From: Rhodothermales bacterium
GTDB taxonomy: Bacteria > Bacteroidota > Rhodothermia > Rhodothermales > VXPQ01
Length of the DNA stretch: 64,000 bases
Direction: 5' to 3'
Assembly (NCBI GenBank): GCA_022821845.1
Contig: JAJECT010000018.1
Span: 20,306 to 84,305, forward strand
In this document: positions 3,372 through 33,120 of the stretch, piece after piece
Numbering within the stretch: position 1 is the stretch's first letter
Layout: every line of letters begins with the position of its first letter
Made by a program: the position numbers and the translations under genes
The notes under the pieces: generated by a model
What the model was told of the DNA's origin: nothing
What the model saw: only the letters and a program-made list of their open reading frames with translations
Database searches by the model: none

Positions 3372-6300
3372 TTGCCGGACAAGATTCTCAACATTGGCAT
3401 AGGGCATCTGTTTGCTACGTACAACCAGTCCGACCGAAACGCGATTTTTCATATCGCTGGAATGCGGTATTCAGAGGAAAGCGTACCTGAAGAAAAAGAC
3501 TGGATCACGGATCCGGGGCATCGCCTCACGCGGCGTCTCTACGAACAAAGCAGAATCGGCAAGGTCATCCTGGAGGGAAAGCCATCCTGGACAGAAGCAA
3601 AGCCAGACATCGTTGCCTTCTTCAGCGAATTGGACGTGCTTTTCCTGTACGACCGGGAAAACCAGAAGGAATGGTTCGAGCGCGTTGTCCTGAAAGATGC
3701 GCCCAAACCTCCTGTTTGCATTGATCTCCTTGAAATGCATCGCTTTTTCTGTCCAGACCGCGATCTTCCGGACAGAAAAAACCTGTCGGAGCCCAACCTT
3801 TCGGACGACGAAGCCCTGATCCGGCAATTCGTTTCGCAAGCGGAAATAAATCGCTCCGATCCCCGGCTGCCTTTCCTTGTGCGCAGCCTCGGCGGCGTAT
3901 TGCAGGATATCGTGTCCCGCATTCGCTCCGAATCGGAAGCACAGCAAGGAAAACACCTCGTGTACACCTTGCTCGGAAGGGCCCTGAACGCAGGAGAAGC
4001 CGCCACGCCGCCCCCTGCGTTTCGGGATTTCGAAGCCTTGTTTCAGGTGGCAGGCATGGCGCACCGGATCCAATGGAACAAGAATTCTCTTTTCGCCAAT
4101 CCCTATGGAGACGAGGCGCTCCAAATAATCCAGGACACGGATTTCTCGAAAGACCCCGCTATCGAAGGCGATACGCGCAAACAGAGAAATTGGCTGATCC
4201 AGGAATGGAGCAAGTTACTGGCCGAGGAAGCAAAGCAAGGCTATGAGGCCGTACCCCGCCGGAAACCAATCGATCCGAAAAATCCCCCTCGCGTGGCGAG
4301 GCCTGTCGTCCATGCCGAGCGCGTAGACGAGGCTTTTAACTGGCTGATCGAAAAAGAAAACTTAAAGCCTCGCAAAGAACAACAGGATTATGCCCGTTTC
4401 TGCACTGAGGCTATCAACCAAGGGGGATCGTACGCCATTGAGGCCGGAACCGGTACCGGCAAAACACTGGGCTATCTGATACCAGCCTCCGAATGCATCC
4501 GGCAAAGCCAGGCCATGGCCGCGGAGGACATGGAGGATGGCGAGGACGTGGAGGCCGGAAAGGTTATTATCGCCACCGCCACGAAAAACCTGCAGGACCA
4601 CCTTCTGGACAAGGAATGGCGGCGCCTTGCCCAAACCGGATCGCTTTATCAGGATTTCAAGGCGGCGCCGCTCAAAGGCAAAAACAACTTTCTGTGCATT
4701 ACCGCTGTGGCGGACATTTTTGGAGAAACATACACACCACGAGCCCGAAGAAATCATAAAAGTACTGAAAAGACATCCCCGGACGACGAAGCGCAAAAGC
4801 GGCTTGCCTGGTTATTGTTATTCCTTGTTCTGATACATAACCGAGGGGAAACAGAGAGCATTCCCCGGCGTTTTTTCCGATCCCGATTTCCTGATCTGGA
4901 CGATTTTCTAAGCGAAACGAAGGCGGACATAGCCTGTACGCCCGGCCTGTGCCGCATGGGCGCATCCTGTATCTATCCCCGACACCTGCAAGAAGCCCAA
5001 AAGGCAGATATTGTAGTCACGAATCACTACAAGCTTCCCCTTATGGATAGCCAGATACAGGCGCTGGGACATACATGCCTGATCGACGAGGCGGATCAAT
5101 TCCCGGACAATCTGCGCAATGCAGCCACCGTCGAATTTTCCAGTTACGACATTCGACGACATTTCCTGCAACGCATCCAGGGCTCCGCAAATCGTCGCGG
5201 ATTCGCAGATATCCTGGAAGATCGTTTCCTGAAAATGCAAGAATCCGGCAACGACGATATAAATAAAAAAGACATCGATAACGCGCTGGATCATATTCGA
5301 TCTATTCTTGTGTCCTGCGAGGCCATAGAACATTGCTCGAATACCATTGAAAATATATTGCAAAATAGCGGGAAATTTCAAAATAATAATACCGATGAAA
5401 AAAGATGGATTGAATTTGGAGATAATGTTGAAAAAACATTACAAAATAATCTTTCTGATTTGACTGAACATTGTAAAAAAGTTGCTCTGTGCTGGAATGA
5501 TATGTCAGAGATTAAAATATATGGAAATATTAATAATTCGCAACAAAAATATGAAAAAAATCGTATAATAAAATATATGCGTTATGCAAATGATTTATCA
5601 AACAAAGCCAATGAAATTAAAAATGATTACCCTTCTAATAATTATGTTCATGTTTGTTCTTGTAAATATTTTAAATATTCAGATTGGAAATTGAAAAAAA
5701 TTCCGTACAATCTATCTAAGATAGTTCAGACAACCTGTTGCGATCCATATCCTGCAACGATATTTACTTCGGCTACTTTATTCGTAGACGAAAAACTCGA
5801 TTTGTTTTCCACTGAGCTGGGCATTTCGTTTGGTGGAGATATGCGGCGACGCATTTCATCTCCTTTCGCATATGAGAAACAGGTCCAGGGATTCGTGACC
5901 ACTTCGGTTTCAATGGTTCCCAATTCCAAAGATGGTTACGAAAAAAGTATGCAATGGCGCAAAGAGGCCGCCTATGCTATCGCCCGCTTCGCCGTGGCGC
6001 TAAACGGACGTACCCTGGTCCTGTTCACCAACACAAAAGAAATGGCAAATATCTTTGAACAAGTGAAACCCACGCTCGAAAGATACGGTATCGAGCCTCT
6101 GCTACAGGACGGAAGCAGCCTTGCTGAAATAAATATTTTTCGCTCCACGAATCAAAGCGTACTTTTCGGCGTGAATCGATTCTGGACCGGGGTAGATTTC
6201 CCGGGATCTACCCTCTCTCAAGTGATCGTGGTACGCTTGCCTAATCCAAGATGGAAAGGCGATCCCCTGATAGATCACCGAAAATGTCATATGGAATATG

Positions 6301-6638
6301 ATGAATTTCTGGAAAAATATTACCGCCCCGTCTCCAAGTTACGATTGCGACAGGGCTTCGGACGCCTTATCCGCAAGGAAGATGACAAGGGTCTGTTCGT
6401 GGTGCTGGATCAGCGGATCTGGTCTAAAGAACACATGCGCGATATGCAAAACGCCGTGCCCATCCCCCTCCAGCGCCGTTCCACCGAACCGGACGCAATG
6501 GAGGACTGGTTTATCAAAGAGGGGCTGGCGCATTTGGGTTTGACACCAGAATTCAAGCAGCGCAATATTGACCTGCGAAACATAAAAATTACCAGCAAAC
6601 CACGCCCTGCCCCAAGGAGACCTGGCCAAAGAAGATGA
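3372..6638 (+). CDS. DinG/XPD (Rad3)-family Fe-S DNA helicase with an N-terminal extension of about 340 aa
   Basis: Walker A is AGTGTGKTLGYL and motif II is LIDEADQF. The Fe-S cysteines are FLC...IAC-x4-C-x5-C (CTPGLCRMGASC). The C-terminal motifs are TSATL, FWTGVDFPG and QGFGRLIRKEDDKG. The annotated start is TTG. Confidence 0.85.
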   Translation: MPDKILNIGIGHLFATYNQSDRNAIFHIAGMRYSEESVPEEKDWITDPGHRLTRRLYEQSRIGKVILEGKPSWTEAKPDIVAFFSELDVLFLYDRENQKEWFERVVLKDAPKPPVCIDLLEMHRFFCPDRDLPDRKNLSEPNLSDDEALIRQFVSQAEINRSDPRLPFLVRSLGGVLQDIVSRIRSESEAQQGKHLVYTLLGRALNAGEAATPPPAFRDFEALFQVAGMAHRIQWNKNSLFANPYGDEALQIIQDTDFSKDPAIEGDTRKQRNWLIQEWSKLLAEEAKQGYEAVPRRKPIDPKNPPRVARPVVHAERVDEAFNWLIEKENLKPRKEQQDYARFCTEAINQGGSYAIEAGTGTGKTLGYLIPASECIRQSQAMAAEDMEDGEDVEAGKVIIATATKNLQDHLLDKEWRRLAQTGSLYQDFKAAPLKGKNNFLCITAVADIFGETYTPRARRNHKSTEKTSPDDEAQKRLAWLLLFLVLIHNRGETESIPRRFFRSRFPDLDDFLSETKADIACTPGLCRMGASCIYPRHLQEAQKADIVVTNHYKLPLMDSQIQALGHTCLIDEADQFPDNLRNAATVEFSSYDIRRHFLQRIQGSANRRGFADILEDRFLKMQESGNDDINKKDIDNALDHIRSILVSCEAIEHCSNTIENILQNSGKFQNNNTDEKRWIEFGDNVEKTLQNNLSDLTEHCKKVALCWNDMSEIKIYGNINNSQQKYEKNRIIKYMRYANDLSNKANEIKNDYPSNNYVHVCSCKYFKYSDWKLKKIPYNLSKIVQTTCCDPYPATIFTSATLFVDEKLDLFSTELGISFGGDMRRRISSPFAYEKQVQGFVTTSVSMVPNSKDGYEKSMQWRKEAAYAIARFAVALNGRTLVLFTNTKEMANIFEQVKPTLERYGIEPLLQDGSSLAEINIFRSTNQSVLFGVNRFWTGVDFPGSTLSQVIVVRLPNPRWKGDPLIDHRKCHMEYDEFLEKYYRPVSKLRLRQGFGRLIRKEDDKGLFVVLDQRIWSKEHMRDMQNAVPIPLQRRSTEPDAMEDWFIKEGLAHLGLTPEFKQRNIDLRNIKITSKPRPAPRRPGQRR

Positions 6639-6714: not shown

Positions 6715-8388
6715 ATGAGCTGGGTAATTGGATTCGTTGGCAGCGCGCCGGACGCCGATGTAGCCGAAGCGCACGACGCTCCGCGATACGGCGTGCAGGA
6801 ATCCGGGGTGTACGCCCAGGCGGGTGGATTGGCGCTGACCTGTGCAGGCGGCGCCCTGCCGAACGGCGGTTCGTTTCTGATAACCGGGCTGGCGGCGGCA
6901 AACGGAACCGTACTGACGCGCGACGACTGGGCCGACCGGCTGAATCCTCCGAAACCCAACCTGCGCGATCTGGACGGTCACTTCGTAGCATTCCGTTGGC
7001 GTTCGGGCCGGGCGGAACTTTTCACCGACCCGCTGGGCGTCCGCACCGCGTACCTGAAGGCATGGCAGGGGGGTACGCTTTTTTGTACGCGCCTGGACTG
7101 GCTCGCAAACATCGTCGGCGGGCTGGACATCAACTTCGCAGCGTTCGGGGCGCACTGGCTTCTGCCGAAACAGCTCACCACGGAGAGTCAGGTACAAAAT
7201 GTCGTACGGCTCGGGCCGGGCGGGCACGCCGTCATAGAGCGCCGACACTTCCAAATGACGGAACAGCCGTGGGAAAGCGAAATCCGCCCCGCCGATCCCG
7301 ATGGCGACGTCTTCGCCGACGCCCTCTCCCAAGCCCTGCGCTGGAAAGGTCCGGTAGCCTGGAGCCTGGGGCTGTCCGGGGGGCTGGATTCGCGGTTGCT
7401 CCTGGCGCTGCATACGCCTGCCGCCGCGCATGTCTGGGGACCGTCGGACCATCCCGACGTGGACATTTCGCAGCGGATTGCCCAAAGCGAAGCCCTGCGT
7501 CACCATATTTTTGCGACCCCCGTTCCCAAAATAGACGAGTGCCTTTCGCTGCTCCGCAAGCACATAGCGCGCGCACAAGTCATTGCCCCTGCCTCGTCTG
7601 TCGCGAACCTTGATCACTATAGCCGATTGCACGCCATGGGCTTGGGCGTGATCGACGGGGGTTTTGGCGGAGTAGCCCGCAGGCAACTCATGAATCGCTT
7701 GCTGGCGCGAAGGGCATTTCGAGGACCCTGGCCCCTGATCATGCAACATTTGTCCATTGACCGAGGGAATATCTTCGCGCCCGAAATTTCAAAAATCATG
7801 CGGACGGGCGCGCTGGCGCAAATTGCAGAGCAGTGGGAGGCGATACCGGAGATAGTGGATCCTGAAAATGCCGTCGATCTTCTTTGTGTACGCATGCAAC
7901 TACCTAATTTTTTTGGATTTGAGCAAAATTATCTGGATGGGGAGGCGGCGTGTTACATGCCCTTTGCGCAGCCCTCGGTGTTAAAAGCGCTATTTCAGGT
8001 ACCGTTGGCGCAACGACGGAATGGGAAACTTTTCCGGCGACTCATAAAGCGTAACTGCGCATCTCTTTCGAGGCATCCGCTGGTCAAGGGAACAATCACC
8101 TATCCCTATGGATTGGGAACGTACGGGACCTATGCCATATCGACGCTCAAAAAGTGTTTGGGGCGGGCGTACAGCGATCCCAGACCGCATCAATTTCTGA
8201 ATGCGATGAAGCCATATGTCCTGGACCTGACCGGAAGCGCGGAGGTGCAAAACTATACGCCCTATGCGCATAAAGCGGTGCGGGCGCTTGCGGAAGCATA
8301 CTATAATGGAGACCTGCGACAGGCTTCCCGTCTGAACTGGTGGCTGACATTCGAAATATGGCGCCAGACGCTATCTGGCAAGCGCTAA
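6715..8388 (+). CDS. Asparagine-synthase-like PP-loop ATP pyrophosphatase without the N-terminal catalytic Cys
   Basis: It has the PP-loop SLGLSGGLDSRLLLAL. The N-terminal AsnB-like fold signature is DGHFVAF...LFTDPLGVRTAY. The N-terminus reads MSWVIGF rather than MCG. Confidence 0.8.
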   Translation: MSWVIGFVGSAPDADVAEAHDAPRYGVQESGVYAQAGGLALTCAGGALPNGGSFLITGLAAANGTVLTRDDWADRLNPPKPNLRDLDGHFVAFRWRSGRAELFTDPLGVRTAYLKAWQGGTLFCTRLDWLANIVGGLDINFAAFGAHWLLPKQLTTESQVQNVVRLGPGGHAVIERRHFQMTEQPWESEIRPADPDGDVFADALSQALRWKGPVAWSLGLSGGLDSRLLLALHTPAAAHVWGPSDHPDVDISQRIAQSEALRHHIFATPVPKIDECLSLLRKHIARAQVIAPASSVANLDHYSRLHAMGLGVIDGGFGGVARRQLMNRLLARRAFRGPWPLIMQHLSIDRGNIFAPEISKIMRTGALAQIAEQWEAIPEIVDPENAVDLLCVRMQLPNFFGFEQNYLDGEAACYMPFAQPSVLKALFQVPLAQRRNGKLFRRLIKRNCASLSRHPLVKGTITYPYGLGTYGTYAISTLKKCLGRAYSDPRPHQFLNAMKPYVLDLTGSAEVQNYTPYAHKAVRALAEAYYNGDLRQASRLNWWLTFEIWRQTLSGKR

Positions 8389-8418
8389 AGGATACGCTGA
8401 TTAAAACCACTACTACTC

Positions 8419-10017
8419 ATGCAACACATTCGCCTGCGCAATACCCCCAGCCCCGCTTTCAAGACAGCGATAGCCCTTGCGACGGCCGTCTTACTGGCGG
8501 CCTGTTCGCCCGAAGCGCCCAAACAGGGCGTAAACGTTGCGGCCGCTTCGCAAACGGAAACAGCGGCGGCGGACTCGCTTTTCCAGGAGGAACTGGCGCG
8601 AGATATCCGCACCATTGTTACGGGAGTAAAATCGCCCGCGCAACAAGAAGCGCTCGCGCAGGCCGCCCGCATCGCGCCGGGCCAAATGAACCACGACCTG
8701 CGCGAAATCCTCGTCGATGCGGCGACTTTTGTCAATTATTTAATGCTGCCTGCGTTGAAAGCCGACGATGCCCGTCTGGACAGCCTTTCCCAACTTCTGA
8801 CCCGCGCCTTGCAGCCTCAGTTTTCCCAGGAAGAATTGACGGCAGACATTCTGTCCATCGCATATCGTTTCCATGAAGAAAGCACCCCCCTTGAGCCAGT
8901 GCCTCAAGCGCGCCAGGAAACGGCGGCATGGGTGGCCATGCACATGTCTCCCGGAAAAATGGGAGAAGCATTACGACATGCTGTGATTGAAGGAATAGCA
9001 AGTATAGGCAACGAAAGTTATGGTATGTATACGACCAGGAGATTTCTTTTAGACGCATTGATAAATCAAACCCCCGGGGGCATGGAAACGCTGGCGGCAA
9101 ATCCGAAAGCAGTCGTTGGCCCCGGCATTCTTGACGAAGGTCGTATGTCTTCCTTTACATCTTTCGTCCGGCAAATATCAAGGCAGGGTACACCGGAACC
9201 ATATATCCCTCCGCCAACGCCAAAGCCAGAGATCACGCCCTTTCACGGACTTCTCGCGGCTATACAATCTATCTCGGCGGGCGAAAGGAGAGAACGACAA
9301 CTGGAAGCTGTACGGCATGTGGAAAAAATGGCGGAAGCGGATCCAACGCAGATAGGAGATACGCTACGCACGGCGATAGTAGACGCCTTTTTAGATATGC
9401 ACAACGCGGCAGCAAAGCCAACGTGGAGCAACCCGGGAGCCGAAGTCTACTATAGTTTACTGAACACGCTTGAGCGCCTTATCATAATCGTTGGAAATAC
9501 CCAAACAGTTGAACTTTTTACAGAACTTAATTTGTACGAATACGAATGCGTAGGGACCGTAAGCGAAGGTCTCTTCAAAAATTTTCCCGACCACAGCATT
9601 CCGTTGATCATTGAATCCACTGCTCAACCGCGAACGCTATCTGAAAAAACACCCGACGCACTGTATATTCTGGGCGAAATAATAATCGATTACAAACGAG
9701 GCAGGCTGGATATATCGCAGAATAACAGAGACCTGTTGATCGCCACAACCCGGCGTTTTCTGGAAGAAGACCTCTCGCTTGCGTGGAACACGCGAGGCGC
9801 ATCCAATTCGTATAGCGATTCGAACGTTCTGTCCGCAGCTATCCACTTGGCCATCGCGTTGGACGATCCGGACCTGATAGACATCTTGCAGGAATTGGCG
9901 ACGAATCCGGATAAAATAACCGTGCTCGGCCTTTCCGACGAACAGGTGGAAGATTTTCAGGAAGGCATAAAATGGCGTTTAGGCTGGCGGCCCTATATGG
10001 GACCTTCCGATTGTTAG
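8419..10017 (+). CDS. Large predicted lipoprotein of unknown function, predicted alpha-helical
   Basis: It has a signal peptide with a lipobox (AVLLAAC|SPE). It is a long uninterrupted ORF 31 nt downstream of the AsnB-like gene, and G+C drops towards its 3' end. Confidence 0.7.
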   Translation: MQHIRLRNTPSPAFKTAIALATAVLLAACSPEAPKQGVNVAAASQTETAAADSLFQEELARDIRTIVTGVKSPAQQEALAQAARIAPGQMNHDLREILVDAATFVNYLMLPALKADDARLDSLSQLLTRALQPQFSQEELTADILSIAYRFHEESTPLEPVPQARQETAAWVAMHMSPGKMGEALRHAVIEGIASIGNESYGMYTTRRFLLDALINQTPGGMETLAANPKAVVGPGILDEGRMSSFTSFVRQISRQGTPEPYIPPPTPKPEITPFHGLLAAIQSISAGERRERQLEAVRHVEKMAEADPTQIGDTLRTAIVDAFLDMHNAAAKPTWSNPGAEVYYSLLNTLERLIIIVGNTQTVELFTELNLYEYECVGTVSEGLFKNFPDHSIPLIIESTAQPRTLSEKTPDALYILGEIIIDYKRGRLDISQNNRDLLIATTRRFLEEDLSLAWNTRGASNSYSDSNVLSAAIHLAIALDDPDLIDILQELATNPDKITVLGLSDEQVEDFQEGIKWRLGWRPYMGPSDC

Positions 10018-10085
10018 ATAAATTTATATGAAATATGTTTATTTAAGTCTGTTATCAAAATTTATTAAGAACATTCAAACGCTCA

Positions 10086-11054
10086 CTATTCACTGCGATA
10101 CGGCATATCCAAAAGCCGCAAGGTATGATGGAATATTTCGTTTATGAATTTCGCCCATTCACGTTCAATGTGTAATATTTCTGCGAGAAGAAATACTTTT
10201 TCAATGTGCATGTTGTTGAGTTGATTGCGCATTTCTTTCGTCACCACGCCTGCGATCAGGAAATTTTTCGTTCTTGCAGAGGTTCGGTCAAAAGATTTTT
10301 TAACGGCGCCAAGCCGTTCCAGAGCTCCAGCCGGATCGGTGCCGCCCTTCACTTCAATCGTTGCTATCTCTTTCCAGGAACCGTCCGGCATTGCTTCTTC
10401 AAAGCGGATATCCGGTTCAGAGGCATATACCATACGGAAATGGTCTTGAGGACCCAGGTGCCATGCCGTCCGCGCTTCGTTGACCTGGCAGACAATACCC
10501 GACCGGTTTTCAAGCCATTCCGCGATTCTGTCTTTGACGGATCGTTCCGCTTCCTGCCCAATGATATTCCTGAGTGCGCCATCCTGCGTGATGCCGATAG
10601 TCGCAAGAATGTTACGATAGCCATTTTCGAGCGTCCAGTCTGTAGAACCTCGAATAATGGAAGATATAACGGCATTGTACAGACGAGCGACCCGGAGCGC
10701 CTTTTCTTCCGTAACGCGTACGGCTGCAGGCGCTTTTTCCCAACGATCTATGGCGCCAACAATATCTGCGACCCTCTTGCGGGAAAGCGTGGCGATTCCT
10801 CGATAATGCAAGGACGCATCCGGATGTATGCAGAGCAAATCAGGATGGGCAAAAACAAGCCTGGGCTTGGCGCCCGTTTCCTCAATATGTCGCCATGCTT
10901 CCATGTCAATCCCGAACTGCTCAGGCTTGTCCCATGGAAGATGTCCCGCAAATGCAAGTATCTTGTTGCGAACCGCTTCGTCCGTGCGGGCGCGAATCTT
11001 GTCCGAAATAATGCGTGCGCGTTGGCGCGCAGCCTCCAACTTATTCAGGTCCAT
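10086..11054 (-). CDS. Putative type II restriction endonuclease (PD-(D/E)xK candidate)
   Basis: Its ATG follows the methyltransferase stop codon directly (TAA ATG at 11057-11052 on the minus strand). A PD...ExK-like motif is present (ASEPDIRFEE...ATIEVKGG). Its G+C is lower than that of its neighbours. Confidence 0.55.
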   Translation of the reverse strand: MDLNKLEAARQRARIISDKIRARTDEAVRNKILAFAGHLPWDKPEQFGIDMEAWRHIEETGAKPRLVFAHPDLLCIHPDASLHYRGIATLSRKRVADIVGAIDRWEKAPAAVRVTEEKALRVARLYNAVISSIIRGSTDWTLENGYRNILATIGITQDGALRNIIGQEAERSVKDRIAEWLENRSGIVCQVNEARTAWHLGPQDHFRMVYASEPDIRFEEAMPDGSWKEIATIEVKGGTDPAGALERLGAVKKSFDRTSARTKNFLIAGVVTKEMRNQLNNMHIEKVFLLAEILHIEREWAKFINEIFHHTLRLLDMPYRSE

Positions 11055-12557
11055 TTACGTTCGCTGCCAGTGATATACGCATTTACGAATTTCCTGCCGA
11101 CCGAATCGCCCCATCTGCTGGCTGGAATTTCCCTTCCCCCTGGGTAGAGCCCAAATAGTATTGCAACGAAAACCTGACCGTTCGGCAAAATCGGAGAGGA
11201 TCAGATCCACAGGGGCCTCTTCGCCATGATAACGCACATTGTCGTTGACCATGAAAACATGCCCCCCAGGCGCCACGACGCGAGCAAGTTCTGTAATGAC
11301 AACCGCCATTTCCGTGAAATAGTGTAGAAGCAGGCCGATAACGTTACGATTGCCGAGCTCGTCCGCGTGCGCGCGAAGAATAGTCAGAACCTCTGCCAGC
11401 GCAGCATTGGCGTCCACCATCTCAAAAACGCGGCACAACGAGTCAGACGCCCCATATACCCTTGCGAGCTCGTCCCGCTTGGATCGATTTTCGACGGTCG
11501 CAGACAGCAACGCTTGTCGGAGCGTCTTGAACGCCTGTTCATCGTACCCCAGGAACGCCAATTCAAGCGCATACGTGCGGGTATAGTCATACCGATTCGC
11601 ATAAGGTGGCGACGTGACGACCGTATCGAACGACCTGTCGTCGAGATTTCGCAATTCGGTCAGACAGGAACCCCCTATCAACTCCGGCGATGGACCGCCA
11701 TACGTGCGCTTGACAACTGGAATATCCGCGATAATCTGATCCAGGCGGCGTTTCAGCGCGGAGCCGAGCGACGGCAATGGCCCCTTGTCGAGCCGGGTGC
11801 TGTTCGTTCGACCGGAACGAGGATCCCACCGAAGATACTGCCCGTCTTTCCGGGTGTAACTGACATCCTCAATAACCGTCATGCAAGCGAAGTTCAGAAC
11901 AGTCGCAAGGGACGCATCGGACAATCCGGCAAGGAATGTCCGCGCTCTTGCGATGTCTTCCTCAGCTTGCTGCGAAAAAGCCCCCCGCGTGATACGAACA
12001 TGCGGGAAACGCCGCTTTTCGTCCGCTTCGCCGGATTCGATATGCCGAAGCAATCTTGCCGAAGCGTCTGTCAATGTTCCGGGGGAAAGTCCGTTAGCAA
12101 CGGCGGCGATAGCGCCCGCAGCCAGGTTCCCGATCGGCATGATTTCGATACCCGTAGCGCGCTTGCCCATACGGCTGGCCGTCAACGCAGTAGTCCCGAT
12201 ACCGGAAAAGGGATCAAGAACGCGGTTTCCGCCGCCTGTATTCAACAGGCGTTCTACGAGCCGCGTGGAAAACCCTTCCTTGTATTTCATCCAGCGAAAA
12301 CCCGGAATGCTTTTGTTGCCCTGATAAGAAACAAGGCGCCGGGTCAGGTCATAGTCGATGCGGATCCGGCTTGCAAAGCGGGCAAGCAGTTCGCTGCGCG
12401 CGGAAGTTGGCCCGCCATTCGGCGACAGAGCAGGCCGGGAAGCAGGTTTGGCCGCCAGGGGCAACGTCGTCTGGATCACTTTTTTAGACCCTTGGGGGTG
12501 ACTGTGAGATTCGGATAAAGGTACGACAACAATGTGCATTGGTTCGCCGCAGGACAT
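11055..12557 (-). CDS. DNA methyltransferase (N4-cytosine or N6-adenine class)
   Basis: The AdoMet-binding motif is VLDPFSGIGTTALTA. The catalytic motif IV is VVTSPPYANRYDY. The start could instead be the ATG at 12539. Confidence 0.85.
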   Translation of the reverse strand: MSCGEPMHIVVVPLSESHSHPQGSKKVIQTTLPLAAKPASRPALSPNGGPTSARSELLARFASRIRIDYDLTRRLVSYQGNKSIPGFRWMKYKEGFSTRLVERLLNTGGGNRVLDPFSGIGTTALTASRMGKRATGIEIMPIGNLAAGAIAAVANGLSPGTLTDASARLLRHIESGEADEKRRFPHVRITRGAFSQQAEEDIARARTFLAGLSDASLATVLNFACMTVIEDVSYTRKDGQYLRWDPRSGRTNSTRLDKGPLPSLGSALKRRLDQIIADIPVVKRTYGGPSPELIGGSCLTELRNLDDRSFDTVVTSPPYANRYDYTRTYALELAFLGYDEQAFKTLRQALLSATVENRSKRDELARVYGASDSLCRVFEMVDANAALAEVLTILRAHADELGNRNVIGLLLHYFTEMAVVITELARVVAPGGHVFMVNDNVRYHGEEAPVDLILSDFAERSGFRCNTIWALPRGKGNSSQQMGRFGRQEIRKCVYHWQRT

Positions 12558-12573
12558 CGGAAAACCGCTTTTC

Positions 12574-14622
12574 CTACCCCTCCCTGCCCCCCACCTCCTC
12601 GCTCGCCATTGCCCACTGGGCGTACGCCGTATCGAGGTCTTCCTGCATCCGCTCGTATTCGGCGCGCAGCGTACGAATCAGGGCTCCGTTCCGATACGCG
12701 TCCGGGGCCGCCATCTGCTCCTGCATTTCCTGAAAAGCCTGCTCCTTTTCGGCGATTTCCCGTTCCAGGCGGTCGCAATACGCACGCAACTGATGGGTCG
12801 TCATCGCTTCGGGATCGACCGCACCGCCCTGCTTCATGGCCCGGTGCAGACGGTTGCGTTCTTCGGCTTCCCGCCGCTTCTGCTCCTTTGAGCGCGGCCC
12901 GCCGGAACCCTTCCCGGCCGTTTCGGACCGACGCTTTCGAGGCGCCTTTCCGCCCAGCCCCTTCAAAGCCTGCCCTTCCGGTTCGGAACGCGCGCCTCCA
13001 AACCCCATGCGCTCCCTGTTTTCGGAATAAGCGCCAATGAACGTACGCACCTGCCCCGCTGCGGCGTACCAGACGCGGTTGGCCACGCGGTCCAGAAAAT
13101 GCCGGTCGTGGCTGATGACGACAAACGCGCCGGAATACTGGCGCAACGCTTCGACCAGCACCGGAATCGACGCCGCGTCGAGATGGTTGGTCGGCTCGTC
13201 GAGGATCAGGAAATTGGACGGGCGGAGCAAGGTGCGGGCCAGCGTAACCCGGCTCTTTTCTCCCCCGGACAGCACCCGAATGCGCTTGAACACATCGTCC
13301 CCCGTAAACAGAAAGGCGCCCAGCACGGAGCGCAGTTCCCCATCCGTTTTGTCCCCGGCGGCCCGGCGCAGCGATTCGAGAATCGTGTCCGCCGGTTCCA
13401 GCATATCCGCCTGATGCTGGGCGAAAAAGGCATGCTCTACGCGGTAGCCCAACGTCCGCTCGCCCTCGAACGGCTCAGTCCCGTTGAGCATGCGCGCGAG
13501 GGTGGATTTGCCCGCCCCGTTCTTCCCGATCAGGGCAATTTTGTCCCCGCGTTCGACCGCAAGCGGCCCGGCGTTCTCGAAAACGCGAATATCGCCATCC
13601 TCGGTGCGATAGGCTTTGGAAAACGGGCTTAGTTCCAACGCCACGCGCCCGGACCTCGGCGGCTCCGGGAAACGAATGCGCACGGCGGCCTCCTCCGACG
13701 GGGCAGGAGGAATGCGCTTCAGCCGTTCGAGCATTTTCACGCGGCTCTGCACCTGTTTCGCCTTGGACGCCTTGTACCGAAACCGCTCGATGAACCGTTC
13801 CGTGGCGGCGATTTCCCGTTGCTGATTCTCGTGCGCAGCCTGCTGAAGGGCGCGCCGTTCAACGCGTTCCCGGAGATAAAAACTGTAGTTGCCGGCGTAG
13901 GAGTGAATGCGCCCCTGGGCCAGTTCGGCGATGGCCGTCACCATCCGATCCAGAAAATACCGGTCGTGGGAAACGATGACTACGGTCCCCTCGTAGCCTT
14001 TCAGGTGGTTCTCCAGCCAGTCGATACTTTCGATGTCGAGGTGATTGGTCGGCTCGTCAAGCAGCAAATAGTCCGGTTGCCGAAGCAGCAGCCGGGCCAG
14101 CATCGCCCGCATCCGCCACCCCCCGGAAAAAGACTTCACCGGGCGTTCCATATCTTCGGCGGCGAATCCGAGGCCGGCAAGCACCACTTCCGCCTTCGGG
14201 CGAATCATATGGGCCTCGCGCAGGGCCAGTGCCGCATGGACGCGGTCCAGCGCATGAAGCCGCCCGGCGTACTCGGCGCCCTCGTGGTTCTGCAACCCCT
14301 CCAGTTCGGAAACGAGTTGCGCTTCCTCGGCCTGAAGGTCCCGAATGTCCGAGAATCCTTTCAGCGCCTCGTCCAGAATAGACGCCTCGGAGTCGAGCGC
14401 CTGCACATCCTGCTCCAGATACCCGATAGATGTGCGAGCGCCCATGGCCAACCGCCCCTCGTCCGGCTCGATATGCCCTTCAACGAGGCGGAGCATGGTG
14501 GTTTTGCCCGCGCCGTTCTTCCCGATCAGCCCGATGCGTTCCCCGACAGGAATGCTCCACGACAAGCGGTCGAAAAGCACCTGATCGGCAAAACGGAGCG
14601 ATATGTCCTGGAACTGGATCAT
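12574..14622 (-). CDS. ABC-F family ATPase (Uup/YheS-like) with tandem ABC domains and a C-terminal coiled coil
   Basis: It has two Walker A motifs (GKNGAGKTT and GKNGAGKST). It has two signature motifs (FSGGWRMR and LSGGEKSR). It has no TM domain and ends in a basic, coiled-coil tail. Confidence 0.9.
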   Translation of the reverse strand: MIQFQDISLRFADQVLFDRLSWSIPVGERIGLIGKNGAGKTTMLRLVEGHIEPDEGRLAMGARTSIGYLEQDVQALDSEASILDEALKGFSDIRDLQAEEAQLVSELEGLQNHEGAEYAGRLHALDRVHAALALREAHMIRPKAEVVLAGLGFAAEDMERPVKSFSGGWRMRAMLARLLLRQPDYLLLDEPTNHLDIESIDWLENHLKGYEGTVVIVSHDRYFLDRMVTAIAELAQGRIHSYAGNYSFYLRERVERRALQQAAHENQQREIAATERFIERFRYKASKAKQVQSRVKMLERLKRIPPAPSEEAAVRIRFPEPPRSGRVALELSPFSKAYRTEDGDIRVFENAGPLAVERGDKIALIGKNGAGKSTLARMLNGTEPFEGERTLGYRVEHAFFAQHQADMLEPADTILESLRRAAGDKTDGELRSVLGAFLFTGDDVFKRIRVLSGGEKSRVTLARTLLRPSNFLILDEPTNHLDAASIPVLVEALRQYSGAFVVISHDRHFLDRVANRVWYAAAGQVRTFIGAYSENRERMGFGGARSEPEGQALKGLGGKAPRKRRSETAGKGSGGPRSKEQKRREAEERNRLHRAMKQGGAVDPEAMTTHQLRAYCDRLEREIAEKEQAFQEMQEQMAAPDAYRNGALIRTLRAEYERMQEDLDTAYAQWAMASEEVGGREG

Positions 14623-16368: not shown

Positions 16369-17895
16369 TTATACCCGAAACCGCCCCAGGACAACGTACC
16401 GACGCGCGCGCAGGCGGCGAGCAAGGCGTTTGGTCAGCCATGGCTGGAAACAAAGTCCCACCAAGCCCAACGCGCCCAGCGATAGCCCAAGCCATACTCT
16501 GGATACGGACTGCAAAAGCGCTAAAATGCCAGGCAATGCAAGAATAAGGATAAAAAAGCAATTCATGAGTATCGCCTGTGTATTTACAACGAATATCAAT
16601 GAAATATTGGGTTCCATCACATTGGCATTGGGCGGACGCGGAACAGGAAACAAAATATTTAAAAATAATGCCGTATAATTTATAATTCCCATGCTAAATA
16701 ATAAAATACCATGTACAAAAATCCATTCAAAATAAATTATTTTATAAAATAACATATTAATTGATATAATGGAGAATATAAAAATAATTACAATTGTCAA
16801 AATTCCTCGATGAGATATCGATAAAAGAATTCGCAGTAATGTATTTTCGGATATTGGCCACACATTCATGCCATCGTAAAAAGAGTGTCTGAAATCCAAT
16901 GCAGAAGCAAAATACATTAATGAATACAGAATCAAATATAATAGATTTAATTCAATAAAAGGAATATTTATAAAATCCATCTCATTGCCAAGCGCAGTGA
17001 TCATAAAAATAACAAAAAACATCATCCCCATAGAAGCCATCGCTATCACGCGGGGCTGCCTGTTTCTCAGTATGAGCTTCCATTCGCAAGAACGCAATTC
17101 TGCCGTCAGGTTCCGAGCGTTGCGTTTGGTTCTGAACACCCTTTTCTTGCCCATGAAACCGGACGCAGCCGAATAGTCCATATACAGACTCTGGCGCACG
17201 CTCCGCACAGCCCCGTAAAACAGACCGCCTCCCAGGATGGCCAGAAGCATTGACGGCCAGGCCGCCCCTGTTTCGGCGGCGTGGAAAAGCGTGGCGGAAG
17301 CGACAGACAACATGCGCGTCTCGTACCCCCATTCAAGCGCCGCCAACGCTGCAACGCAAAGCCATATCCCCAGCAGCGGCAGATACCCTCTTCCTCGCCA
17401 GAAACGAAGGATATTCGCCGCAAAGTGCATGCATGCATACGCCAGACACAGAACCAGCAGCCAGTTCCAAGCGAAAGCCACATCCCGGAGATACAGATTT
17501 TTGACCCAAAACCCCGTTATGAACGTCAATGCGAACAGGTTAAACTTGCCGCACAGCATAACGATCTGATAAAACAACGCCAACTTCTGTCTGGCCGTTG
17601 GGGTAGCGAGATACGGGAAAAGCGGTACGTGCGCCCTGCGACGAAGCAGCATGCCATCGACAAGGCCGCCTATGATAAGCGCCGGGGCCAAAACCGGATT
17701 CACGCGAGCAAGCAAATCGACGGAAGGGTCGATCTCCAGAAATCGCACGACGGAAAAACCCATATAAAAGGCATAGAGCAAGACAGGCGCCCAAAAGCAA
17801 AGCGCCATAAGCACATTGCCCCCCAAAATCCACGTTCCAAACGGAGACCGCAGGGTCCGCTTCAGATAATGCGAGACCAGAGAATGGACAAGCAT
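16369..17895 (-). CDS. ABC-associated multi-pass membrane protein (putative permease, uncharacterised family)
   Basis: It has about 12 hydrophobic segments. It is a paralog of 17903-19387: MLVHSLVSHYLKR vs MLIRSLASNYLKS, CEWKLILRNRQPR vs FEWKLIWRNKRPR, and FRHSFYDGMNVWPIS vs FRSTFYDGLMSRPVS. Confidence 0.8.
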   Translation of the reverse strand: MLVHSLVSHYLKRTLRSPFGTWILGGNVLMALCFWAPVLLYAFYMGFSVVRFLEIDPSVDLLARVNPVLAPALIIGGLVDGMLLRRRAHVPLFPYLATPTARQKLALFYQIVMLCGKFNLFALTFITGFWVKNLYLRDVAFAWNWLLVLCLAYACMHFAANILRFWRGRGYLPLLGIWLCVAALAALEWGYETRMLSVASATLFHAAETGAAWPSMLLAILGGGLFYGAVRSVRQSLYMDYSAASGFMGKKRVFRTKRNARNLTAELRSCEWKLILRNRQPRVIAMASMGMMFFVIFMITALGNEMDFINIPFIELNLLYLILYSLMYFASALDFRHSFYDGMNVWPISENTLLRILLSISHRGILTIVIIFIFSIISINMLFYKIIYFEWIFVHGILLFSMGIINYTALFLNILFPVPRPPNANVMEPNISLIFVVNTQAILMNCFFILILALPGILALLQSVSRVWLGLSLGALGLVGLCFQPWLTKRLARRLRARRYVVLGRFRV

Positions 17896-17902: not shown

Positions 17903-19387
17903 TCACCGCTTCCGAAACTCCTCCATAATCAAGTAGTGCTTCCGCTCAAGCCTTTTTACGGCCCCGTCGATCCACTTGCGGCGCCAAAGCAGCCCCGCCA
18001 GTCCCAGCAACGCGATCGCTATGCTGCCCCAATACATACCCGGCAGGAGCAATACGAGTAAAAAGGGAATGAGTATCCCCGGCAGCACCCAAAGGCCCGT
18101 AATCCACGAATTCTTATCCCACCGAGCGGCAACGACGCCAAAAACCTGGCCGTTGAGTTCAAGCCGCCTGGCGTCCAGAACCCATGTGTAGGGCACAGTA
18201 TATTTCAACGCTAAACCATACAAAAGCATACACCCGACAAAAAACAGCGATCCGAATCCTTTTATAATAACAAAAATGATTGCAATAAGACCAAGCGTTC
18301 CAAATAATGCTATGTTGGCAATAGAAAAACTGCTTGTCAATATCGAATGGATAGATACGGGTCGAGACATCAGGCCATCATAGAATGTGCTTCGAAAATT
18401 AAAAGCGCCCATCATAAACTGCAAACAGCCCAAAACAGGCATCAACAAGCCCATGGTCATCTCCGTAGGAGATACATCCGACAAACTGGACATGCCAATG
18501 GCGATCCAGCCGCCGAATACTACGAAATAGACGCTCAGGAACATCAGCATCCGGGGGCGCTTGTTCCGCCAGATCAACTTCCACTCGAAAGCCAGCATCC
18601 CGTCGGCGAACGAATGCCTCAGTCCCTTCCCGACCGCCTTGGCGCGCGAGCGGGACAGGATACTGTTGTCCACGTAAAGCGACCGAATCACCTGCCCGGT
18701 GGATACGTACAGCGCCGCCCCGCTTGCGACGAGCGCCGCGGCCAAAGGCCAGAAAGCCCCCTCCAACATCGCCCCGAACAACGCCATGGAAAGGCCAGAC
18801 AAGGTCGAAATGTCGTACCGCCACTCTATCGCCGCCAGCCCCGCGACGACAAGAAGCGTACAAATAACAGGCAGGTAGCGCCGCGCAAGCGACATCCGCA
18901 GCAGGTTCGCCAGAAAATGAAACCCGGCGGATAACGTCAGGAAAAGCAGCATCCAGCCCCAGGCATAGGGAACGCCCGCCACAAGAAAATTGCTGATCCA
19001 GAAAAATAAAACGAACAAAAACGGCAATAAATTAAATTGCCCGAAAACGCTTATCGCCTGATAAAAAAGCGCGACTTTCCCCCGACCGATCGGAGTGGGC
19101 AGGTACGGAAACAGCGGAAGGGCTATCTGGGGCCGAAAAAGAATATCCAGGGCGCCCCATACAATGAAAAAATACAAGGCGAACCGGCTGGCGAGGACCG
19201 CCATGTCCACGTCGAAAAAGAGTTCCCTCGCCAGCAAGCCGCCAAACAACCCGCCCGCCATCGCGTACAGATACAGCGGCATCCATACGAACAGGATGGT
19301 AAGCGCCTTCATCGCCAGTTTCATCTCCCCGAAACGGGAGCGGCGAATGCTTTTCAGGTAATTCGAGGCAAGGGAACGAATCAGCAC
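17903..19387 (-). CDS. ABC-associated multi-pass membrane protein (putative permease, uncharacterised family)
   Basis: It is the paralog of the previous gene and the first gene of the minus-strand cluster. The gap to the next gene is 7 nt. Confidence 0.8.
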   Translation of the reverse strand: MLIRSLASNYLKSIRRSRFGEMKLAMKALTILFVWMPLYLYAMAGGLFGGLLARELFFDVDMAVLASRFALYFFIVWGALDILFRPQIALPLFPYLPTPIGRGKVALFYQAISVFGQFNLLPFLFVLFFWISNFLVAGVPYAWGWMLLFLTLSAGFHFLANLLRMSLARRYLPVICTLLVVAGLAAIEWRYDISTLSGLSMALFGAMLEGAFWPLAAALVASGAALYVSTGQVIRSLYVDNSILSRSRAKAVGKGLRHSFADGMLAFEWKLIWRNKRPRMLMFLSVYFVVFGGWIAIGMSSLSDVSPTEMTMGLLMPVLGCLQFMMGAFNFRSTFYDGLMSRPVSIHSILTSSFSIANIALFGTLGLIAIIFVIIKGFGSLFFVGCMLLYGLALKYTVPYTWVLDARRLELNGQVFGVVAARWDKNSWITGLWVLPGILIPFLLVLLLPGMYWGSIAIALLGLAGLLWRRKWIDGAVKRLERKHYLIMEEFRKR

Positions 19388-31491: not shown

Positions 31492-31580
31492 CCGGAAAAC
31501 GCCGCGGGTACGGCGGCAAGGGGAATATAGGGAAAAGCGGGGCGGGGCGGCCTCGTTTTATCGCGGGCTGTCGGGGAAAT
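31492..31580. repeat. Left copy of an 88/89-bp direct repeat (island boundary), in the moaC 5' leader
   Basis: Manual alignment with 36596-36683 gives 7 substitutions plus one 1-nt indel over 89 positions. Confidence 0.9.
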
Positions 31581-31660
31581 GTTGAAACTGTAGCAAAGTG
31601 AATCCTATTTATAATATACGAAATTATGGAACCAAAGTAAAACAATAAGCAAATTAAAAT

Positions 31661-31981
31661 CTACGTCTTTTTAGGCAAGTTTTCGAGGCGTTCCGGATAT
31701 TTTTTTCCCGTTAGTTTCTGCAATCGCTCCAGTTCTTGCCTATACATTTTAGCTTTTTGTCGTTCCACAATGTAACGAGTAGAAAAAAACCAAAGTATTA
31801 TACTAATAGAAGGTGTTAAAAACAAAATCAAATTTGGTGTTTCTCCTTGTACATTTAATATTTGAATTACATTATATAGGTTATATAAAATAAAAATTGT
31901 AGTGATCGCAAAGATAACCCATGCAATAATTTGGGCTTTAATGATTTTATCACTATTTTTATTCATTGCACTATCCTCCAT
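31661..31981 (-). CDS. Small two-TM membrane protein with a basic C-terminal tail (AT-rich gene)
   Basis: The sequence MEDSAMNKNSDKIIKAQIIAWVIFAITTIFILY...LILFLTPSISIILWFF... shows the two hydrophobic helices. Its codon usage is strongly A/T-biased, unlike the host genes. The start is uncertain (31981 or 31966). Confidence 0.5.
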   Translation of the reverse strand: MEDSAMNKNSDKIIKAQIIAWVIFAITTIFILYNLYNVIQILNVQGETPNLILFLTPSISIILWFFSTRYIVERQKAKMYRQELERLQKLTGKKYPERLENLPKKT

Positions 31982-32513: not shown

Positions 32514-33120
32514 GATATTAACCTGTGTTAGTTACGATGTAGTACAGCAGAACCCGGCCAGAACCGAGCACCGATTCCCCGAAAGCGGGCGCGTATCCAT
32601 AGTCTAACGCCCCGCCTGGACAATGTCAAGCCCTTGTCTGAATTTTTTTTCGGGCCGCTTCCCTGTGGGGTTCGTGGATTCCTTCGTACTCTTCGACGAG
32701 GCGTTCCGTTCGGCAAAGGTAGCATATCCATTCCGCCCGCCATACGCCTTTCTTCGCCTTCGAGGCCCAAAGCATAACGCCGCCTTTCTCTTCGCGCACA
32801 GGGTACAGGGGAAAGGATTCGGGATTTTGACGCGGAACCCGCCTGCGGTTTCAATGCAGTTCGGTTCGGGATCGGTTCGTTTCATGGGTTCGGTACGTGT
32901 AAGGGGTTCGCAGGCGTTGGCCGCTTTCTTTGCGCAGGAAGGCGAAACCGTTTCGCGCCTTCGCAAGCGTTCCGCATCGCGCCGTAAACGCGCCCAGAAC
33001 GCCCGCAAGGCCGCGCATCGAGGCCGAAAGAACCCGTAACGCGGCGGAAACCGTGCGGAAACAGCGCGTAAACGCGGCGTATCTACCAGAGGCGCGGCAA
33101 AATCACCGTGTAACAACCCT

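Follow-up and report, generated by a model that had tools for sequence, protein, structure and literature searches.

A helicase gene of a Rhodothermales bacterium contains, between helicase motifs II and III, a stretch of coding DNA with a GC content far below that of its flanks. The question is whether this stretch was imported, as the original prediction suggested when it described a cassette, perhaps from a low-GC donor, replacing the Arch-domain region, or whether it belongs to the gene by descent. Using the 64-kb window around the gene, that is, the whole stretch of DNA that was analysed, together with related loci and a structure model, we arrive at the second answer. With a probability of about 75%, the AT-rich stretch is the vertically inherited Arch of a DinG/XPD-family helicase, in which the low GC has arisen in place.

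The helicase gene and its product

Helicases of the DinG/XPD type consist of two motor domains, a four-cysteine Fe-S domain and an Arch domain, the latter two both being inserted in motor domain 1 (PMC6300356, PMC11981726). Judged by its motifs and profile matches, the gene product is a DinG/XPD-family (SF2) iron-sulfur helicase of a Rhodothermales bacterium. Pfam matches comprise Helicase_C_2 (5.7e-28) and DEAD (4e-06, above its cut-off), and the best solved relatives are S. aureus DinG and E. coli DinG. ATP-dependent 5'-3' unwinding is predicted for the protein as a trait of the family. The gene and its parts are the following:

3372..6638, + strand: complete DinG/XPD-family helicase gene, an open reading frame of 1088 aa starting at TTG 3372
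3372..4331, + strand: N-terminal extension of ~320 aa (upstream conservation, Foldseek alignment)
4443..4466, + strand: Walker A / motif I, AGTGTGKT, aa 358-365, invariant across 18 homologues
4695..4970, + strand: predicted Fe-S cluster domain with the conserved cysteines C442, C522, C527 and C533
5079..5102, + strand: motif II, LIDEADQF, aa 570-577 (alignment), of which IDEADQF (aa 571-577) is invariant in 18 homologues
5232..5801, + strand: AT-rich segment, the Arch-domain coding region, aa 621-810 (composition, AlphaFold2 model, motif position)
5352-5711, + strand: core of the AT-rich segment, GC 0.20-0.28 (composition)
5766..5780, + strand: motif III, TSATL, aa 799-803, where the chain re-enters helicase domain 1 (alignment)
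5988..6461, + strand: helicase domain 2, Helicase_C_2, aa 873-1030 (PF13307, 5.7e-28, 98.5 bits against a cut-off of 25.3)

The four cysteines lie between motifs Ia and II, as is characteristic of the 4Fe-4S cluster of the family, and a cluster is predicted here as well. All four are unchanged throughout an alignment of 18 sequences (A1), and in one of 55 sequences (A2) each is either invariant or at least 90% conserved.

In close orthologues, automatic callers place the start at the equivalent of ATG 3462. The alignment shows that the first 30 amino acids (IGIGHLFAT...), which lie upstream of this ATG, are kept in distant homologues. The N-terminal extension may represent an exonuclease-like or pseudo-exonuclease-like domain that has degenerated. 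The Foldseek alignment of the helicase to the S. aureus ExoDinG protein spans 1055 columns, while the extension gave no Pfam RNase_T match, and residues 1-300 of the structure model, which leaves out the 30 conserved first residues, contain just two short strands. The Exo I acidic residues appear to be absent, the position of the D-x-E motif reading G-H-L-F by eye.

Composition of the AT-rich segment

The stretch 5340-5740 has a GC content of 0.249 and is the lowest 400-nt stretch among those sampled in the 64-kb window, where 400-nt windows have a mean of 0.590 and a standard deviation of 0.072 (z = -4.8). The 200-nt minimum, 0.205, lies at 5501-5700. We could reproduce the counts of 11 G+C in the 60-nt line at 5521 and of 42 in the line at 6781, and both peptides quoted in the original prediction are in frame (nt 5382-5453 and 5517-5711). 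The collapse in composition is thus real, but the dip is somewhat wider than the 5340-5740 first given for it; it extends over about nt 5232-5801 (aa 621-810), with shoulders ~20-30 codons wide. As had been claimed, the reading frame remains open: 5232-5801 has 0 stops in the coding frame and 7-28 in the five others, while shuffles of the segment have a mean of 16.5 stops and none of 2000 was stop-free.

The gene had been described as GC-rich. Outside the dip it has ~52-53% GC, which is below the ~60% of its surroundings, and its GC3 of ~0.52-0.58 compares with 0.72-0.80 in the adjoining genes. The gene is thus not strongly GC-rich. The reported shift in both codon choice and amino-acid content was borne out: GC1/GC2/GC3 are 0.36/0.28/0.25 in the segment and 0.60/0.40/0.58 in the rest of the gene. 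Lysine is encoded by AAA in 20 of 21 cases, asparagine by AAT in 21 of 24 and isoleucine by ATT or ATA in 16 of 17. AT-ending codons are rare in this genome, where typical GC3 is 0.65-0.79.

An RNA embedded in the tract was rejected, since the search of Rfam at E <= 1 returned a single noise match of 17.5 bits. As to repeats and low complexity, trivial A-rich 14-22-mers alone were found. Sigma-70-like matches cluster in the tract as expected of any AT-rich DNA, and neither a conserved Bacteroidota-type TAnnTTTG (-7 motif) nor a block of conserved nucleotides is present in it, which led us to reject an embedded promoter. A gene for a DUF5687 membrane protein in the same window has the same kind of dip, and the DUF5687 dips of paralogues and orthologues coincide in relative position.

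The segment encodes the family's own Arch domain

The region between motifs II and III is where XPD/DinG helicases carry the Arch, and the assignment of the segment to this domain is supported by both alignment and model. The segment aligns to the inter-motif II-III region of S. aureus and E. coli DinG. In the AlphaFold2 model (mean pLDDT 83.5), aa ~630-792 form three long helices and a beta-hairpin between the two motifs, with helices at aa 632-665, 684-712 and 723-751, the hairpin at 758-778 and block pLDDT values of 76-96. Foldseek matches of the whole model are DinG, XPD and CasDinG proteins, with DinG proteins the best.

In the 18-sequence alignment, the segment pairs with orthologues whose GC in this region is a normal 50-67%, with length differences of just 3-8 residues inside it. 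R678, W679, L694, Y735, S755, V759, W772 and K776 are invariant and shared with the GC-normal orthologues. This alignment shows residue-by-residue orthology between the AT-rich segment and the Arch of GC-normal relatives. An intein had already been argued against, and the segment indeed adds no length relative to orthologues; an intein or mobile insertion was rejected, as there is neither a domain-size insertion nor a terminal repeat. Across the whole helicase family the Arch is the most variable domain, the ratio of segment to flank identity being ~0.5-0.65.

Descent of the segment among relatives

In codon-aligned comparisons, the GC content of the segment is 0.20-0.30 in the window and in four close relatives (L001, L002, L003 and L007), 0.23-0.45 in L004, 0.20-0.37 in L010, 0.31-0.39 in L011, 0.39-0.54 in L013 and 0.45-0.68 in L005, L006, L009 and L012. 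At least three clades carry AT-type segments, whose sequence is clade-specific, and in separate clades the dip begins at one shared codon, about aa 621. In L011 and L013, sister lineages, the dips are graded and segment and flank identity are equal. Since the dips are graded from deep to none at the same domain in several clades, the shift appears to have arisen in place.

The gene order GT2-accA-nadC-ROK-Bac_transf-helicase is kept in genomes with and without the dip. The helicase gene is syntenic, was found in all related loci examined and evolves far faster than its neighbours. It adjoins a variable island bearing a restriction-modification system. We found no cas genes around the gene, either in the window or at twelve related loci, and no conserved defence partners adjoin it in the neighbourhoods compared.

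A neighbour-joining (NJ) tree of the segment agrees with the flank tree at clade level, although NJ trees on 160 columns are of low resolution. AT-type segments are nearest to their own clade: P0018 and P0019 share 0.71 identity in both segment and flank, and P0014 has 0.43 to P0011 against 0.41 to the window. After Dayhoff-6 recoding, segment and flank identities between the window and P0011 are 0.60 and 0.80 (ratio 0.75), and pairs of GC-type proteins behave alike (P0011-P0018, 0.57/0.76; P0011-P0023, 0.57/0.72). On these aligned sequences, the segment and the remaining gene have the same phylogeny, and the composition-neutral divergence of the segment relative to the flanks is, as far as recoded identity measures it, the norm of the family.

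It had been proposed to search with the cassette alone and with the flanks, to see whether their best matches come from different phyla. An exhaustive phmmer search with 190 aa against 1.84 billion representatives led instead to the same helicase family at the same position. Ten of its 12 matches lie at the equivalent position in Helicase_C_2/DEAD proteins, belong to family members identified before or are short fragments; the remainder are one short fragment without family assignment and one low-complexity artefact. The top match is the GC-normal orthologue P0012 (residues 626-803). None of the 120 full-length homologues listed is more identical in the segment than in the flanks, and no phage or plasmid DNA matched the segment.

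The proposed replacement of the Arch by a cassette from a low-GC donor is contradicted by these data: the segment is the family's own Arch with its invariant residues, the trees agree and the cassette search returns the same family. Moreover, the observation named in advance as speaking against a swap was made, in that close relatives carry the same AT-rich segment with the phylogeny of the flanks. We therefore rejected a foreign cassette or cross-phylum swap, given congruent trees, the lack of a donor-like homologue and a segment that is present in four close relatives and graded beyond them. Neither another copy or template of the segment nor another DinG-like gene is present in the 64-kb window; a target of a diversity-generating retroelement and gene conversion from a paralogue were rejected on this ground.

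Selection and direction of substitution

Four of five pairs of close relatives have a segment dN/dS of 0.20-0.40, and that of the flanks is 0.20-0.45. The exception, window against L002, has a segment value of 0.97 at a dS of just 0.027, which leaves too few differences for a meaningful ratio. Members of the GC-normal clade share 83-91% identity in the segment, which is at least as well conserved as the flanks there. Going by these substitution rates, the segment is still under ordinary purifying selection. The suggestion of a highly divergent, fast-evolving specificity module accordingly holds in so far as the Arch is the most variable domain family-wide, but within clades dN/dS matches the flanks and the recoded divergence (0.75) is the norm.

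In comparison with L005, synonymous differences at identical residues run 27 AT-ward and 5 GC-ward, and replacements at codon positions 1-2 run 60 AT-ward and 18 GC-ward. In this lineage, directional GC-to-AT substitution has thus lowered the GC of the Arch in place, as both kinds of sites show, with replacements such as D->N, V/L->I and R/E/Q->K. At 0.57-0.59, the Arch has a transition fraction no higher than that of the flanks (0.63-0.67), and a cytosine-deamination signature was rejected for this reason.

Polarised substitutions within the AT clade, given as GC-to-AT/AT-to-GC, are 174/109 in the N-terminal part, 148/92 in the C-terminal part and 81/95 in the Arch. They imply an equilibrium GC of 0.34-0.50 throughout the helicase gene and of ~0.35 in the Arch, although parsimony polarisation is biased to common-to-rare change, so that the equilibria are approximate and the slightly higher AT-to-GC count of the Arch may not be genuine. 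The adjoining Bac_transf gene has a GC3 of 0.80 and an implied equilibrium of 0.71. As a whole, the helicase gene has a lower GC content than its neighbours and, with an implied equilibrium of ~0.35-0.5, it is still moving AT-ward. From this and its low GC3 we infer that in the affected lineages the gene evolves under conditions in which GC has ceased to be maintained at the level of the genome. By analogy with solved DinG structures, the Arch would be a peripheral helical accessory domain inserted in motor domain 1. It may tolerate helices rich in Lys, Asn, Ile and Tyr and may therefore have run furthest to the AT-rich equilibrium.

A general rule by which the least-constrained region drifts to AT was rejected. 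The linker at aa 241-270 has 13% identity between L003 and L005 and still a GC3 of 0.63, and the coupling of GC12 and GC3 within genes across the window is weak (r = 0.15). Moreover, the C-terminal half, which differs among close relatives as much as the Arch does (dS 0.5-0.8), has a normal GC. Weak protein constraint alone does not explain why the collapse is restricted to the Arch.

Alternative explanations

This restriction speaks for selection at the DNA or RNA level, in which the segment would still be a vertical Arch but its AT-richness would serve as a nucleoid silencer patch, an internal or antisense promoter, or a rare-codon throttle or pause. The dip is limited to one domain, starts at the same codon in separate clades and is graded, not random; low protein constraint elsewhere in the gene (aa 241-270) gives no dip; sigma-70-like matches cluster in the tract, though this is expected from its composition. 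With AT-ending codons as rare as they are (GC3 0.65-0.79), the DUF5687 dips at matching relative positions in paralogues and orthologues are as expected of position-specific rare-codon clusters. However, synonymous diversity (piS) in the Arch is 0.35-0.58, as high as elsewhere in the gene and without a trough, and we saw neither a conserved nucleotide block or -7 motif of the Bacteroidota type nor notable repeats or an Rfam match above noise. The orthologues in L005, L006, L009 and L012 manage without a dip, and codon selection alone needs no shift in amino acids. A selected nucleic-acid device of this kind (throttle, silencer patch or folding pause), one that emerged or grew deeper separately in three or more clades, is in our view unlikely, though the most serious competitor; if true, the same device would act in other genes of these genomes, e.g. 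those of DUF5687 membrane proteins.

Allelic replacement, by which the ancestor of the AT clade would have recombined in the Arch region of a low-GC relative's orthologue with the motif II and III regions as anchors, appears improbable to us, although an ancient exchange with a close low-GC lineage that is unsampled keeps a small probability. The gene is indeed mosaic (L001 and L007 share 93% in the C-terminal part and 79% in the Arch, the window and L003 93% in the N-terminal and 83% in the C-terminal part), synonymous diversity at aa 430-1000 is 2-4 times that of the N-terminal third, and the gene lies at the border of the variable island with dip edges that adjoin conserved motifs. Yet no candidate donor was found, either among the 1.84 billion representatives or among the 120 full-length homologues listed, and the segment tree and composition-neutral distances are as vertical descent predicts. 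The edges of the dip are shoulders of 20-30 codons instead of steps, the low-GC outgroup L008 is not nearer to the window segment than to that of L005 (0.26 vs 0.23), and the graded dips of the sister lineages L011 and L013, as well as at least three clades with sequences of their own, argue against replacement. Still less probable is an Arch that acts as a specificity module under diversifying selection, e.g. in an arms race with phage inhibitors, with composition as a by-product of turnover. It would fit the family-wide divergence of the domain (ratio ~0.5-0.65), the strong PADLOC match to a CasDinG-type profile (7.8e-84), the adjoining island with its restriction-modification system and the high allelic diversity among close relatives. 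The dN/dS of 0.20-0.40 in four of five pairs, however, indicates purifying selection like that on the flanks, the segment of the GC-normal clade is at least as conserved as its flanks, no cas genes or other conserved defence partners lie beside the gene, and fast protein evolution leaves a GC3 of 0.13-0.25 unexplained. To an assembly chimera, an AT-rich piece mis-joined from another organism in the metagenome, we give next to no credence. Only the composition itself favours it, while the reading frame runs through without a break, the segment shares homology with the Arch of the family and four other independent assemblies (ENA, two Logan runs and an NCBI MAG) carry the segment at 74-97% nucleotide identity.

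Comparison with known systems

The helicase resembles E. coli DinG (PDB 6FWR/6FWS) and the XPD family in its four-domain plan, Walker A, DEAD/DEAH-type motif II, motif III and Helicase_C_2 domain, and E. coli DinG matches it in Foldseek with E = 4e-27 and a target TM-score of 0.70. It differs in having only ~20% identity, an extra N-terminal domain of ~320 aa and Arch DNA of 20-30% GC. The best solved match overall is ExoDinG (S. aureus DinG, PDB 8ZEF/9II8; Foldseek 2e-29, phmmer 2.4e-16), and a long N-terminal domain ahead of the helicase core is shared with both ExoDinG and pExoDinG. A review describes that pExoDinG (pseudo-exonuclease DinG) keeps the four Fe-S cysteines and two acidic residues (PMC11981726). 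Our helicase also keeps the four cysteines, but its N-terminal domain would be at best degenerate, beyond the reviewed pExoDinG with its two acidic residues.

The scores against NCBIfam equivalogs are under the cut-offs for DinG (PRK11747, 175 vs 598), YoaA (242 vs 680) and ExoDinG (PRK08074, 245 vs 789; TIGR01407, 195 vs 548). Because all of them fall below, the helicase is placed, on profile scores, in a separate subfamily of DinG-like proteins. CasDinG (Csf4) of type IV CRISPR is similar in that its PADLOC profile matches residues 328-1039 (7.8e-84) and Foldseek gives 3e-19. CasDinG has a vestigial Fe-S domain (PMC10450177), whereas the helicase studied here keeps the four Fe-S cysteines and scores 72 against a cut-off of 400 for TIGR03117. 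We rejected an identity with CasDinG, since cas genes are lacking at this gene and at twelve related loci, the Fe-S cysteines are intact and TIGR03117 is below its cut-off.

The AT-rich block has features in common with mosaic genes formed by homologous import and subsequent amelioration, namely a sharp local departure in GC and codons inside an intact gene that is mosaic among close relatives. It differs in that the block shares the phylogeny of the flanks and is graded among relatives. There is also no strong drift back to host GC, as amelioration would involve; the implied equilibrium is ~0.35 and not 0.6. In the literature on intragenic AT-rich patches in GC-rich genomes, we found nothing directly relevant.

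Implications

Overall, our data bring to notice a Rhodothermales subfamily of DinG-like helicases, for which we met no name or family assignment in a literature search that was not aimed at the subfamily. They also advise caution with composition-based calls of horizontal gene transfer (HGT), as a block of 570 nt that is 25-30 GC points off its flanks and has foreign-looking codons may nevertheless be vertical. The finding raises the question of whether GC in the rest of the gene is kept up by codon selection, by biased gene conversion or in another way. It is a modest curiosity, and the working mechanism of the helicase as known stays unchanged. What it shows is that the domains of a single gene can part company in base composition, in graded steps from one relative to another, even as the protein stays under purifying selection.

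A DinG-like helicase with an AT-rich domain

By sequence, the top solved relatives of the helicase are S. aureus DinG, E. coli DinG and XPD. An AlphaFold2 model based on a 55-sequence alignment (mean pLDDT 83.5, pTM 0.82) gave S. aureus DinG (2e-29) and E. coli DinG (4e-27) as top Foldseek matches, followed by XPD and CasDinG. The protein falls below the NCBIfam cut-offs for DinG, YoaA, ExoDinG and Csf4 and thus belongs to a separate DinG-like subfamily. Among named genomes, a Rhodothermales MAG comes closest (77% identity). Over the same genome pairs, protein identity is 55-65% for the helicase vs 89% for a neighbouring gene, and the helicase evolves much faster than this neighbour.

Features of the helicase
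3372-6638, + strand: DinG-like helicase ORF, 1088 aa
aa 358-365: Walker A, conserved
C442, C522, C527, C533: four conserved cysteines
aa 570-577: motif II, conserved
aa 632-665, 684-712, 723-751: helices predicted in the AlphaFold2 model
aa 758-778: predicted hairpin (same model)
aa 795-800: chain back to the motif III strand (same model)
aa 799-803: motif III, conserved
aa 873-1030: Helicase_C_2 (Pfam, 5.7e-28)
Within the ORF: DEAD (Pfam match)

The 30 codons (3372-3461) that precede the ATG used by gene callers in the closest relatives encode a peptide with the consensus IGIGHLFATG..RD.IFHIA. Since these codons are conserved in distant homologues, the true start is probably the TTG at 3372 or close by. 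This peptide looks like a DnaQ-type Exo I motif stripped of its acidic residues, so the N-terminus may hold a pseudo-exonuclease domain.

The composition collapse described in the original prediction was reproduced exactly: G+C is 11 in the 60-nt line at 5521 and 42 in that at 6781, and 5340-5740 has a GC content of 0.249, the lowest among the sampled 400-nt stretches of the window (mean 0.590, sd 0.072). The lowest 200-nt value, 0.205, lies at 5501-5700. The limits of 5340-5740 were slightly too narrow; by codon GC the dip extends over ~5232-5801 (aa 621-810) and has shoulders 20-30 codons wide. The frame stays open as predicted, with no stop in 5232-5801 (7-28 in the remaining five frames), while shuffled segments contained 16.5 stops on average and 0 of 2000 were stop-free. 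Codon choice and amino-acid content have both shifted, as had also been proposed: GC1/GC2/GC3 are 0.36/0.28/0.25 in the segment vs 0.60/0.40/0.58 in the remainder of the gene, and AAA encodes 20 of 21 Lys, AAT 21 of 24 Asn, and ATT or ATA 16 of 17 Ile.

In DinG/XPD proteins the helical Arch domain is located between motifs II and III (PMC6300356, PMC11981726), and the AT-rich segment occupies this place in the helicase. Judged by the predicted helices, the hairpin and the return to the motif III strand (block pLDDT 76-96 across the region), dip and Arch domain share the same edges. The proposed Arch position is correct, but replacement by a cassette is not supported: the AT-rich stretch encodes the Arch domain native to this gene, whose base composition has changed in place.

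The segment is native to the gene

A swap from a low-GC donor had been suggested. We found the segment to be alignable end to end with its orthologues in an 18-sequence alignment, in which R678, W679, L694, Y735, S755, V759, W772 and K776 are invariant. DNA was recovered for thirteen relatives, and the upstream order GT2-accA-nadC-ROK-Bac_transf-helicase is common to the window and nine of them, as far as the contigs reach. Close relatives carry the same AT-rich segment, an outcome named beforehand as refuting a swap, and the codon position at which the dip starts is identical across separate clades.

GC of the segment, codon-aligned
Window and close AT-type loci L001, L002, L003, L007: 0.20-0.30
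Relative L004: 0.23-0.45
Relative L010: 0.20-0.37
Relative L011: 0.31-0.39
Relative L013: 0.39-0.54
GC-normal loci L005, L006, L009, L012: 0.45-0.68

Neighbour-joining (NJ) trees of segment and flanks agree at clade level, and AT-type segments are each nearest to their own clade. The homologous proteins P0018 and P0019 are 0.71 identical in both segment and flank, and the segment of homologue P0014 is 0.43 identical to GC-normal P0011 vs 0.41 to the window. After Dayhoff-6 recoding, which takes out changes of the K/R, I/V and N/D type, the segment/flank identity ratio between window and P0011 is 0.75, the same as for GC-normal pairs. No homologue with greater similarity in the segment than in the flanks was found. 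When the 190-aa cassette was used on its own in an exhaustive phmmer search of 1.84 billion representatives, 12 matches emerged. Ten of them were the equivalent position in Helicase_C_2/DEAD helicases, known family members or short fragments; the others were a short fragment without family assignment and a low-complexity artefact. The GC-normal orthologue P0012 was the top match, and a blastn comparison of the cassette with collections of phage and plasmid DNA gave no matches. With congruent trees, a recoded ratio of 0.75 and no donor in either search, the swap is not supported. A mis-join in assembly was ruled out because four other independent assemblies carry the segment.

The alternative of a fast-evolving module is weakly supported. 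The Arch is the most variable domain family-wide at depth, but in this lineage its rate is not exceptional when composition is discounted, the ratio of 0.75 being that of GC-normal pairs. Among close relatives dN/dS is 0.20-0.40 in the segment and 0.20-0.45 in the flanks; an outlier of 0.97 (segment, window vs L002) is not meaningful, because dS is only 0.027 there, with too few differences. Members of the GC-normal clade share 83-91% identity in the segment, which is as conserved there as the flanks. By these comparisons the Arch is functional and constrained.

Direction and cause of the shift

At residues shared with the GC-normal L005, synonymous differences run AT-ward in 27 cases and GC-ward in 5. 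Replacements at codon positions 1-2 show 60 and 18, respectively, dominated by D to N, V or L to I and changes to K. Substitutions inside the AT clade were polarised by parsimony with L004 as outgroup.

Polarised substitutions in the helicase gene
N-terminal part: GC-to-AT 174, AT-to-GC 109
Arch: GC-to-AT 81, AT-to-GC 95
C-terminal part: GC-to-AT 148, AT-to-GC 92

The implied equilibrium GC is 0.34-0.50 across the whole helicase gene and 0.71 in the adjoining Bac_transf gene, both rough values since parsimony inflates common-to-rare changes. GC3 of Bac_transf is 0.78-0.82 in every lineage; neighbouring genes have 0.72-0.80, the helicase 0.65 in L005 and 0.52 in the AT-type L003. Whole-gene GC lies 0.07-0.12 below that of flanking DNA in dip lineages vs 0-0.02 in lineages without the dip. 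In our reading, an AT-ward regime would act on the whole helicase gene in the dip lineages, and the Arch would be the part already at the AT floor.

Selection for AT-richness itself, at the nucleic-acid level, seems unlikely to us as a reason why only the Arch is affected: synonymous diversity has no trough across the domain, and the segment yielded no block of conserved nucleotides, no promoter motif of the Bacteroidota type, no Rfam family, no meaningful repeats and, within the 64-kb window, no second copy. Weak protein constraint alone was rejected as cause; L003 and L005 share 13% identity in the linker at aa 241-270, and its GC3 is still 0.63. Across the window, GC12 and GC3 are weakly coupled within genes (r = 0.15), and the C-terminal half has normal GC at a divergence among close relatives equal to that of the Arch. 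There is no deamination signature, since the transition fraction in the Arch is not elevated.

A mosaic gene beside a variable island

For the pair L001 and L007, identity is 89% over the N-terminal part, falls to 79% in the Arch and reaches 93% over the C-terminal part, and segment-wise identities are discordant between pairs of close relatives. Among four close relatives, synonymous diversity is 0.3-0.58 at aa 430-1000 (window ~4660-6400), 2-4 times that in the N-terminal third (0.04-0.2 in most of it). The gene is a mosaic made by recombination, and its central and 3' parts carry old alleles. A variable island lies directly downstream.

The island and its boundary
6715-12557: variable island
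First part of the island: two proteins of 557 and 532 aa without Pfam match
10086-11054, - strand: XcyI-like restriction endonuclease
11055-12557, - strand: N6/N4 DNA methyltransferase
12574-14622, - strand: conserved ABC-F gene, island boundary

Island content differs in relatives (GT2, IS1595 and IS4-type transposases, other unknown proteins), and in L006 the island is empty. In the distant low-GC relative L008, genes for a Peptidase_M78 (ImmA/IrrE-like) and a DUF4411 protein come after the helicase (9516-11185), a defence- or toxin-antitoxin-like neighbourhood without the Rhodothermales synteny.

AT-rich dips in other genes

Further low-GC runs (200-nt minima 0.24-0.31) occur at 9881-10300, covering the ends at which ORF 8419-10017 and the restriction-enzyme gene converge, and at 31551-32080 and 32241-32620, which comprise a 180-aa ORF without Pfam match (31971-32513, - strand) and its surroundings. 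The gene at 34457-36091 (- strand, 544 aa) has a GC3 of 0.38, with bins as low as 0.07. Its product carries an rve_3 integrase-core fragment at the N-terminus, a long Gly stretch with a Glu stretch behind it, and Peptidase_M15_3 at the C-terminus; the gene is probably foreign or fused with an IS remnant.

An intact gene for a DUF5687 polytopic membrane protein (16369-17895, - strand) has an AT dip at ~16481-17120. Its codons 301-420 have a GC of 0.17-0.38 (GC3 0.13-0.37) vs 0.5-0.63 in its other codons. The tandem paralogue (17903-19387, - strand) and two L006 homologues (12542-14017 and 11195-11722) dip less strongly at the corresponding relative position. Because these genes dip too, the helicase is not a special case: domain-limited AT dips recur in these genomes, and the composition history of the helicase is unusual, yet not unprecedented.
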